DNA of 32,000 nt from Candidatus Helarchaeota ASGARD archaeon Hel_GB_B (GCA_005191425.1 SUPR01000002.1:37566-69565), one strand, 5' to 3'. Shown: positions 8,604 through 10,937, numbered from the stretch's first letter. Made by a program: numbers and translations. Notes: a model not told the origin generated them from the letters alone.

Positions 8604-9860
8604 TTAAATTATATTTTTAATAAAAGTTATCTCTCTTCTATCTAATTCATAAAATTTTTTTAAATATTCGCTTTGGGGAGATCTCTTCTTAAGAATTAAG
8701 GCAATAAATGGAAGATGTTTTGTGATAATTTCCTCAGGACTACTCTTTAACTTCTTTCTAATTTTATTTACAATGTTCATTAATTCCCCTGATCTTGATG
8801 CATACATTTTATTTAAGAAATTACTGGGCGAATACCTAAAATATTGAACAAAATGGGACTTATTCTCGTTTTTAATTGGTAGTGAAACGCCTGAAGAAAT
8901 TATATCTATAAAATATGGTAGCATTGACCATGATATTTTCTCTGGATTGCTTGCAATTGCGTTATAAATTAAATCAGCTTTTGATAATGCTTTATATGAC
9001 TTAAATAGCGTTCGCGAGGAAACTTTATGATATGGGAGAATTTCATTTACCCAATGTAAAAGTAGTCCCCAATCAATGTCTAGCATTGAAACTGCTCTAT
9101 TACATGTTTGAATATCTTTATTTTTAAATATTATATTTAAAACTTCAAATATATTTTTCTCAGTATCTCTTACTTGCTGAATCTTTCTTACATCTGACAA
9201 TGTTAATTTTTTCTTACCTTCACAAACTGCTTGGAGGTCATTTATTGCAGACCGCAAATCATTATTTACATTAATTGCAATTTCAGTAAGCGCTTTTGGA
9301 TCGGCTTGTATTTTTTCGGCAATGCAAATTTTCTGAAGTACCTTTACTATAGTTGGATTTTTTATTTTTTGAAATTTTACGATTTTTATCCCGCTTCTTT
9401 TATCTCTTAATGACCTGAACTTTTTGTCATGTACATTGTTAGCTGTAAAAATAATTGGAAATTTCGATAATTTAACCATCTTTAACATGGCTGATAATCC
9501 CCCCCTATCTTGATTCCCACTTAATCCATCAACCTCATCTATTAAATATAATTTATTTACTCCCTTTTTAATAGTCCGTGTAGCCAGACTTGGAATAAGT
9601 TTTTCTTCAATGCTTTTTTTATTTCTAACATCACTAGCATTTATTTCAATAACATCAAACCTATTAAGCTTAGCTAATACATTAGTAGATGAGGTCTTTC
9701 CACATCCCGGAGGTCCTAATAATAATAGTGCTTTAATTTCGTTTTTACTTGACCATTTTGTTAAAAATTCTTTTATAACCTTAACAGCATTAGGATTTCC
9801 TACTATATCTGATTCTTTTTTGGGTGCATATTTTATTGTCCATAATTCCTTTTCAAGCAT
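8604..9860 (-). CDS. rfcL: Replication factor C large subunit
   Basis: [39 protein letters not shown] and DLRSAINDLQ. Confidence 0.93.
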   Translation of the reverse strand: MLEKELWTIKYAPKKESDIVGNPNAVKVIKEFLTKWSSKNEIKALLLLGPPGCGKTSSTNVLAKLNRFDVIEINASDVRNKKSIEEKLIPSLATRTIKKGVNKLYLIDEVDGLSGNQDRGGLSAMLKMVKLSKFPIIFTANNVHDKKFRSLRDKRSGIKIVKFQKIKNPTIVKVLQKICIAEKIQADPKALTEIAINVNNDLRSAINDLQAVCEGKKKLTLSDVRKIQQVRDTEKNIFEVLNIIFKNKDIQTCNRAVSMLDIDWGLLLHWVNEILPYHKVSSRTLFKSYKALSKADLIYNAIASNPEKISWSMLPYFIDIISSGVSLPIKNENKSHFVQYFRYSPSNFLNKMYASRSGELMNIVNKIRKKLKSSPEEIITKHLPFIALILKKRSPQSEYLKKFYELDRREITFIKNII

Positions 9861-9875
9861 TATAATTATCGCCTT

Positions 9876-10937
9876 TTAATCTTTAATTCCAAGAGTAGCA
9901 AGATATGTTAAGAAAAATGAAAGTTGTAATTCATTATTAGATGGAACGCTAATATATGAATCGAATTTTGATATTTCTATAGAAATTTTCTTCTTTAATT
10001 CTTCTGTAATAGTTGATTCCATTAAAAATTTATTAAAAGCTTTTAATATCATTTTTCCTGATAAACTTTTTTTAATAAATAGATTTCTTAAAAAATTCCG
10101 CGCATCAACTATATTACCACTTATAGCTAATTTTAGACATTCCCCAATTTCTTTAATTTCTAGTTTCTTTATCATTTCATATATAAAATTTTCTGTAATT
10201 TTTTTCTTATAACAACTTGCTGCTTCTAATATATTAATTGCAATATTCATATCATTATTAGAATAATAATAAATCAATTTTAAAGCATTTTCAGTGATAT
10301 TAATTTCCTCTGATTCGCATATATATTTAATTTTACTTAAAAATTGTTTTTGACTTAATGGAAATAATTTTAAATTTACACATCTCGACCTAATTGGGTC
10401 TATTATATTTGAAACTGAATTTGCCACCAATATAAATCTACATATCCTACTATATTTTTCCATAGTCCTCCTTAATGCCTGCTGTATTATTCTTTCTAAT
10501 TTATCCGCTTCATAGATGATCAAGATTTTGTGGTCAGCAGAATCTAACGTTTTAGTTTTTGGATAGTTTCTGATAATTGTAAATAATATATCTATTCTAC
10601 TTGGACTTTTAGACTTGCCGTGTCTTTTTAGACTTATTTTGCTAGCCTCTACCCAATATGGCATGTATTCATAGTAGAAATTCTTACTATCTGAAGCAAA
10701 AATCTCTTCAATATTCGCTTTATATGTTGTTCCATATAAGTCATGCACCAAACTTGATACTATTGAGGTCTTTCCTTTAGGATGAAAATAACCTACATTT
10801 CAAATTCCCGGAGGACCATATAACAACAAGTTCGGTAAATTTCCGCTTTTTACATATTTTTTAATCTGATTTATTATATGTTCTTGTCCTATAATATTTT
10901 CTAATGTATCTGGACGGTATTTTTCTATCCATGACAT
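9876..10937 (-). CDS. rfcS: Replication factor C small subunit (divergent type), split by a 27-nt BHB intron: join of 10937-10804 and 10776-9876, 344 aa after splicing
   Basis: ATG at 10937 gives MSWIEKYRPDTLENIIGQ...LPNLLLYGPPGI*. The same frame continues NVGYFHPK-GKTSIVSS into the annotated 291-aa ORF (QQALRRTMEKY, FILVAN, IRSRC). The ORF track captures only exon 2. Confidence 0.9.
10777..10803 (-). other. Predicted 27-nt bulge-helix-bulge intron in rfcS mRNA
   Basis: mRNA reads UCC-GGGA-AU^U-UGAAA...UUUCA-UCCU-AA^A-GGA. Exon helix UCC/GGA, 4-bp central helix GGGA/UCCU, two 3-nt bulges, intron helix UGAAA/UUUCA. Removal yields GGA AUA GGA AAG ACC (G-I-G-K-T). Confidence 0.88.

Follow-up and report, generated by a model that had tools for sequence, protein, structure and literature searches.

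A candidate bulge-helix-bulge intron in the P-loop codons of a replication factor C small-subunit gene of Helarchaeales

The DNA considered here is a 32,000-nucleotide (nt) window from the Asgard archaeon Candidatus Helarchaeota Hel_GB_B (GCA_005191425.1, SUPR01000002.1:37566-69565), which carries on its minus strand rfcS2, a gene for a small subunit of replication factor C (RFC) whose Walker A codons are split by 27 nt. This insert, at 10803-10777 (-) in the numbering of the whole window, is very likely a spliced archaeal bulge-helix-bulge (BHB) intron in the coding sequence of a gene of the order Helarchaeales. The reading is preferred because six orthologous introns keep the structure, vary in sequence and length, and restore the reading frame upon removal. 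That the RNA is cleaved and ligated in the cell, and that the process has any regulatory use, we infer from sequence comparison. The source genome (G000 below) is a draft metagenome assembly of 182 contigs that is 94% complete and comprises 3.5 Mb with 28% G+C.

From the ATG at 10937 (-), the rfcS2 frame reads MSWIEKYRP...LLLYGPPGI-UGA-NVGYFHPK-GKTSIV... and ends, in the same frame, at the stop codon at 9876. Exon 1 (10804-10937, minus strand) extends from the start codon to the second base of an Ile codon and thus encodes MSWIEKYRP...LLLYGPPG plus two-thirds of that codon. The phase 2 intron (10777-10803, minus strand) follows, delimited by its fold, by the rule that both cuts fall after the second base of the bulge (PMC2738675), and by the orthologous inserts; its bases 2-4 form the in-frame UGA. 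Exon 2 (9876-10776, minus strand, stop codon included) encodes GKTS...SRC... and the Rep_fac_C domain, as assigned by Pfam and the orthologue alignment.

When 10825-10760 (-) is folded with RNAfold, the minimum-energy and centroid structures coincide in a strict hBHBh' motif that, together with its exon helices, occupies 10764-10817 (-). An outer helix GGUC/GACC pairs 10817-10814 with 10770-10767, and the h helix UCC/GGA pairs 10812-10810 with 10775-10773. The 4-base-pair (bp) H helix GGGA/UCCU joins 10809-10806 to 10782-10779 and is bordered by two bulges of 3 nt each, AUU (10805-10803) and AAA (10778-10776), beyond which the h' helix UGAAA/UUUCA (10802-10798 with 10787-10783) closes a loop of 10 nt. 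The layout is canonical, with the order h-H-bulge-h' on the 5' strand and h'-H-bulge-h on the 3' strand. Removal of 10803-10777 in silico gives GGA AU/A GGA AAG ACC (the slash marks the junction), which reads GPPGIGKTS within a protein of 344 amino acids (aa), and only with the intron removed does the gene acquire a canonical Walker A motif (GPPGxGKT). The original prediction, made from the window alone, had described the frame, the UGA-bearing insert and every helix and bulge, and both the sequence and RNAfold bear it out in each detail; its exact excision of the insert by cuts after the second bulge base, to give GPPGIGKTS and 344 aa, is likewise reproduced, as is the 45-aa peptide that it assigned to the unspliced message, in which the UGA is reached after 45 codons of the rfcS2 frame. 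An Rfam search of the window at gathering thresholds returned no match, and ARAGORN recognised no tRNA in it.

It is the comparison with relatives that carries most weight. Related genomes were searched with the exon-2 protein, and the DNA of the orthologues in the same order was then read at the P-loop. Six distinct orthologues, the window's own among them, carry an insert at one common position and in one phase, behind the second base of the x codon in GPPGxGKT. The insert measures 27 nt in G000, 24 nt in G001 (a genome of the same genus, and likewise in three other assemblies), 28 nt in a JGI contig and 33 nt in GCA_014729825, while the second family contributes inserts of 33 nt (G006) and 25 nt (G004); together the six span two families of one order and come from NCBI, JGI and GTDB-set assemblies. 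The inserts of 25 and 28 nt break the frame, and several of the others hold two or three stop codons. A single rule, namely a cut after the second base of each bulge, nevertheless produces GPPG[IT]G[KR]T and an open reading frame (ORF) of 344-351 aa with an ATG start in all six. The original prediction's reading of the insert as a BHB intron in an mRNA is thereby supported, both by the six inserts obeying one cut rule and by the presence of the splicing endonuclease EndA and the ligase RtcB in the genome.

All six inserts fold as BHB motifs. Their h' helices (UGAAA/UUUCA, UGAAAUC/GAUUUCA, UGAA/UUCA, GAAAUCGA/UUGAUUUC, GAAUAAUUA/UAAUUAUUC and GAUAU/AUAUC) have 4-9 bp and are entirely different between the families, yet paired. 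At the fourth pair of H, A-U is replaced by U-A or U-G, the partners being the synonymous third base of a Gly codon in the exon and a base of the intron; in h, one U-A pair gives way to C-G by way of synonymous substitutions in an exon-1 Pro codon and an exon-2 Gly codon. These covariations come from a sample of six sequences, four of them from one genus, and carry no formal statistic. The strict motif is present in four of the six orthologues, compared with about 0.14% of random 27-nt inserts that were drawn at genome composition (28% G+C) between fixed exons and gave a strict, in-register hBHBh'; the remaining two orthologues deviate by one or two mismatches. At protein identities of 33-62%, the six orthologues keep both exons open and retain the start codon, RFC box II, the SRC motif and Rep_fac_C. 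Exon 1 is 50-82% identical among them at the protein level, versus 36-73% for the first 100 residues of exon 2, and therefore appears to be translated as part of an RFC protein, the only context in which its conservation makes sense.

The gene itself has the traits of an RFC small subunit (RFC-S): an AAA+ module, the Rep_fac_C domain, RFC box II (EKYRP) and the SRC arginine finger (PIRSRC). It groups with RFC-S sequences in a maximum-likelihood tree. Pfam matches to exon 2 comprise Rep_fac_C (35 bits), AAA (25.6 bits) and DNA_pol3_delta2, and the match of exon 1 to the Rad17 P-loop family is weak and falls under the curated cut-off. An insertion of about 28 residues follows the ASD motif. rfcS2 is a second, divergent RFC small-subunit paralogue; the canonical rfcS, with the P-loop GPPGTGKTT, is encoded on another contig of G000.

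In the tree, eight Helarchaeales sequences of the rfcS2 paralogue form one group in which the intron-bearing genus branches first, and the second intron-bearing family (f2) is sister, with moderate support (88/88), to an intronless family (f3). Because the intronless f3 is sister to the intron-bearing f2, the insert could have been either gained once and lost once or gained twice at one site. In the sister order, the second RFC-S paralogue branches as a clade of its own, and its open frames, of about 350 aa, are uninterrupted. A scan of metagenomes with the exon-2 alignment recovered 80 loci, mostly canonical RFC-S genes from many archaea; one of these, on a G004-type contig, has an interrupted P-loop, and a motif check of the other 79 revealed no interruption of the P-loop.

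According to the proposed mechanism, the rfcS2 pre-mRNA would fold into the strict hBHBh' motif by pairing exon codons (CCU CCG GGA upstream; GGA AAG ACC downstream) and intron bases. EndA, represented by two diverged paralogues that probably assemble into a heteromeric enzyme, would cut after base 2 of each 3-nt bulge, and RtcB would ligate the rfcS2 exons and probably circularise the 27-nt intron. The predicted spliced junction, CCGGGAAU/AGGAAAGACC, would then encode the 344-aa subunit with its Walker A motif intact.

The genome contains one PF01139 gene, which encodes RtcB (contig C105), and, on contigs C36 and C98, two PF01974 genes for EndA paralogues of 192 and 198 aa (L033:1477-2052 and L034:1477-2070, both on the minus strand), each with an N-terminal and a catalytic domain. 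Their catalytic domains align locally over 88 residues with 26% identity. Since the second paralogue lacks, in the pairwise alignment, a His where the first has a DHA motif, the pair suggests a heteromer of one catalytic and one structural subunit, similar to the hetero-oligomeric enzymes with which cbf5 splicing is associated. ARAGORN recognised only 14 tRNA genes in the whole of G000, eight of them with introns; introns that are non-canonical or multiple probably conceal most of the tRNA genes. This result fits the pattern reported for Asgard archaea, whose tRNA genes are mostly interrupted and often at non-canonical sites (PMC11291895; bioRxiv 10.64898/2026.10.13.758758).

A number of observations speak against the intron reading. 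The Walker B motif of rfcS2 is IIYEAD, in which Tyr replaces the first Asp of DEAD, and Y[ED]AD stands in place of DEAD in all orthologues; it is possible that the subunit binds ATP but does not hydrolyse it. The spliced P-loop of one intron-bearing orthologue is GPPGTGRT, with Arg for Lys, and the two intronless f3 orthologues sit on long branches with degenerate P-loops (GPPGSGKMS and GPNGSGRLT), so that the binding or use of ATP by this second small subunit may be under relaxed constraint. The motif is imperfect in two genomes: in G001 an A.G mismatch occupies the fourth pair of H, and in GCA_014729825 a complete H is accompanied by A.A in h and U.C at the base of h'. Four of the six insert-bearing sequences belong to one genus and hence are not independent. 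The folding energy of the window's motif is ordinary relative to shuffled sequences (z = -0.48) and for this reason provides no argument for the motif; the argument lies in the geometry. Finally, searches of sequencing runs listed no RNA run with the rfcS2 sequence.

Some of these points would suit a decaying pseudogene, or a redundant paralogue, that was hit by a small insertion and whose BHB-like fold is a coincidence. The divergent Walker B, the degenerate P-loops of relatives, the presence of a canonical rfcS elsewhere in the genome and the unexceptional folding energy all agree with it. We nevertheless consider this very unlikely: decay would hardly leave both exons open, with their start codon and RFC features, in six orthologues that have diverged to 33-62% identity, nor exon 1 conserved as protein, and a coincidental fold, expected in some 0.14% of random inserts, would not recur as a BHB in inserts of different length and sequence, each of which is removed exactly by one and the same cut rule. 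A gap that is crossed during translation, either by ribosomal bypassing or by recoding and read-through of the stop codon and in both cases without RNA splicing, is extremely improbable. As in gene 60 of phage T4, a case of bypassing, rfcS2 has a stop codon after the would-be take-off region and a hairpin at the beginning of the gap, and in G000 GGA codons flank the gap on both sides. A hop from GGA to GGA, however, yields GPPGKTS and loses the GxxxxGK[ST] spacing, and the second family, in which GGU precedes the gap and GGG follows it, offers no matched take-off and landing codons. Moreover, the conserved feature is a pair of 3-nt bulges around a 4-bp helix, for which bypassing has no need. 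Read-through would place 8-11 residues into the P-loop, and it is impossible for the inserts of 25 and 28 nt and for those with two or three stops of different kinds. Recoding of UGA as selenocysteine is ruled out by UAA, several stops or a frame shift in other orthologues; group I, group II or spliceosomal-type introns and mini-inteins are ruled out by size, 24-33 nt being too small for any of them.

Splicing also has to be separated from cleavage. Archaeal EndA processes BHB motifs that do not belong to introns, for instance in rRNA precursors, and the eukaryotic enzyme TSEN cleaves some mRNAs without ligating them (PMC10485636), so EndA might cut the rfcS2 motif and leave the exons unjoined, as a site of mRNA decay or regulation or as a source of separate products. 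This is highly unlikely in our estimation. Near its 5' end exon 2 lacks a conserved start codon, its first codons being those of the second half of the P-loop, and exon 1 on its own encodes a 45-aa fragment, yet is conserved as an RFC N-terminus. Selection on cleavage alone would not restore the frame in six cases out of six, frame-breaking inserts included. The chance that the insert is an artefact of sequencing or assembly seems negligible. G000 is indeed a draft of 182 contigs assembled from a metagenome, but Logan contigs from two runs of different studies (contig pieces were obtained from two of four runs, and one of the two may be the source sample) span the insert in unaltered form, and the orthologous inserts come from independent NCBI, JGI and GTDB-set assemblies. 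Among the explanations weighed, an intron excised from the mRNA by EndA is the one that we retain.

The original prediction had asked for a check against assembly error, an alignment of orthologues and a scan for further BHB-split genes. The first finds the insert unchanged in the bridging Logan contigs; the second finds inserts at one site, compensatory changes and intronless f3 orthologues; and the third finds two more candidates, described below. It had also expected automated pipelines to miscall the gene, and they do. Public protein records of the gene (281-314 aa) are calls of exon 2 only, among them two NCBI records of 281-291 aa named 'hypothetical protein', and exon 1 is mostly a separate ORF of 45-50 aa just upstream or is left uncalled. 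Gene calls on an ENA contig and on a Logan contig show the same division into 45 aa and about 295 aa.

Further inserts of this kind occur in the same genome. A scan of both strands for strict motifs that on removal join otherwise broken open frames, with any base composition and at least 40 codons on each side, gave 624 matches, nearly all of them AU-rich pairings over intergenic gaps. When at least four G-C pairs in h plus H were required, three matches were left, of which the rfcS2 insert is the only short one; the other two (C103 7716-7801 and C97 1371-1484) are long 'introns' with unconvincing h' helices and were set aside. A relaxed scan returned 29 matches versus one in a reversed-genome control, a lenient control in that reversed sequence is devoid of long ORFs. 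A codon-usage filter for coding potential was dropped, as it did not separate true from false matches and lost the RFC introns; the three coding-sequence introns described here are therefore a lower bound and not a census.

One of the two additional candidates lies in the canonical rfcS, whose open frame falls short of that of relatives by about 20 residues. Here, WVEKYRPR is followed by 30 nt with four stop codons and then by LSEIINQ. The insert (L002:1271-1300, equivalent to G000 C131 8417-8446, plus strand), assigned by fold and homology, forms a strict BHB with H CACG/CGUG, bulges AAA and AUC, and an h' of 9 bp. The cut rule gives RPRTLSEIINQ, which matches RPRTLDEVVNQ and RPRSLSEVVNQ of intronless families. 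G001 has a 29-nt, frame-breaking version in its canonical rfcS (L056) with a compensatory change of A-U to C-G in h', and the insert is absent from other families.

The other candidate, a 31-nt BHB insert in an acyl-CoA dehydrogenase gene (L059:1334-1364, equivalent to G000 C38 4933-4963, minus strand), emerged from the relaxed scan and a DNA alignment. It severs the last 23 residues of the protein, so that the Pfam match to Acyl-CoA_dh_1 ends at position 130 of 150. Alignment with orthologues from four other Helarchaeales genomes, all intronless, reveals an insertion of exactly 31 nt, and its removal gives ...RDAKMAEIYEGTSEIQ, a universal motif. One of these four orthologues comes from the same genus and is 88% identical, and the intron seems to have been acquired very recently. 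The sequence at the 3' end of the insert, AUGGCUAAAAU, is similar to AUGGCCGAAAU, the exon sequence at the 5' junction. The three G000 introns share no sequence, and BLAST searches of the genome with each of them found no further copies; by sequence they do not form a repeat family.

These results bear on the claim of the original prediction that clamp loading would depend on splicing. From rfcS2 alone this does not follow, as a canonical rfcS is present elsewhere in the genome; in its broader sense the claim is probably correct, given that the canonical rfcS also contains a BHB intron, and both RFC small-subunit genes of G000 appear to need splicing. The regulatory coupling of replication to tRNA processing that the original prediction raised is speculative. 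The wider proposal that BHB mini-introns invade coding sequences in Helarchaeales (at least three in G000), and that splicing of mRNAs by EndA and RtcB is routine and ongoing in this order, is a tentative one whose chances we place a little below even.

In the literature searched, archaeal mRNAs with confirmed EndA-dependent splicing comprise only cbf5 of some Crenarchaeota and HVO_1309 of Haloferax. An intron in the cbf5 pre-mRNA was described in Desulfurococcales and Sulfolobales at a time when no other gene had been confirmed (PMC2738675), and a review from 2023 lists cbf5 and Haloferax HVO_1309 as the spliced archaeal mRNAs, with more expected (PMC10485636). Neither for an RFC gene nor for a protein-coding gene of an Asgard archaeon did the literature searches turn up a described BHB intron, which agrees with the original prediction's statement that none was known in RFC or in an Asgard replication gene. 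The rfcS2 intron belongs to a known type, the EndA type of intron in mRNA, and extends that type to a new gene and phylum.

The closest precedent is cbf5 of Crenarchaeota (Watanabe 2002; Yoshinari 2006; Yokobori 2009, PMC2738675). In both genes a short intron splits the codons of a motif that is catalytic or conserved, is flanked by a BHB with splice sites between bulge residues 2 and 3, is present or absent according to lineage and causes annotation pipelines to miscall the gene; genomes with the cbf5 intron also combine a hetero-oligomeric type of EndA with many non-canonical tRNA introns, as G000 probably does. rfcS2 differs in that its intron interrupts the Walker A codons of an RFC small subunit in an Asgard host of the Helarchaeales and in having strict hBHBh' motifs for the most part, those of cbf5 being mainly relaxed; furthermore, cbf5 splicing has been shown by experiment and rfcS2 splicing is inferred. 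The HVO_1309 intron of Haloferax volcanii reportedly lies in the 5' untranslated region, outside any coding motif. HVO_1309 resembles the rfcS2 case, as proposed here, in being an archaeal mRNA with a BHB that is cut by the tRNA-splicing endonuclease and ligated (Schwarz 2020, PMC7714728; PMC10485636), but its host is a euryarchaeon with an alpha2 enzyme, and its splicing has experimental support. The BHB introns of archaeal tRNAs and rRNAs (Marck and Grosjean 2003) have the same hBHBh' geometry, a length of tens of nt and the same expected pairing of EndA with RtcB. In rfcS2, by contrast, the host is an mRNA and the exon halves of the helices are codons, so that translation can compete with folding and splicing.

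The P-loop is also the most common insertion point of inteins in archaeal RFC-S (PMC4760082). These inteins, like the rfcS2 intron, are intervening elements in the same motif and protein family, and must be removed before an ATPase site exists. They differ in being hundreds of residues long and in being removed at the protein level, whereas the rfcS2 element has 24-33 nt, would be removed at the RNA level and has neither coding capacity nor a homing endonuclease. A more distant likeness is to the eukaryotic HAC1 and XBP1 mRNAs, which undergo regulatory splicing through cleavage by IRE1 and ligation by a tRNA ligase or RtcB. There too, an mRNA loses a small intron through a structure-directed endonuclease and a tRNA-type ligase, with no spliceosome, and the frame or product is changed; the nuclease and the stem-loop that it recognises are different, and regulation is known only for HAC1 and XBP1.

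The rfcS2 intron would add to the known cases a core DNA-replication gene, interrupted in its catalytic P-loop, and an Asgard host, and the comparison of six orthologues is about as strong a case as sequence alone can give. The two further introns, one of them apparently a very recent gain, suggest a process that is active and not a single relic. It is important to point out that the calling of Asgard genes silently truncates such genes. G000 offers a concrete system in which to consider mRNA introns under coupled transcription and translation, a problem at the heart of ideas about how the nucleus arose; if BHB splicing of mRNAs were indeed routine in a lineage near the eukaryotic ancestor, ribosomes would have to be kept off the unspliced message. 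The occurrence of two unrelated intervening elements at the RFC-S P-loop, one an intein and the other acting at the RNA level, also raises the question of why they converge on this motif.

Fifteen nt downstream of rfcS2 begins rfcL (8604-9860, minus strand), the gene for the RFC large subunit, with Pfam matches to AAA, Rad17 and an RCF1-5-like lid; the rfcS2-rfcL pair is kept at all orthologous loci. At 9690-9716 (-), rfcL encodes an uninterrupted GPPGCGKT in nearly the same codons (GGA CCU CCG GGA ...) as those of the spliced rfcS2 junction. The codon CCG, which is rare in this genome of 28% G+C, is common to the rfcL P-loop and the rfcS2 junction.

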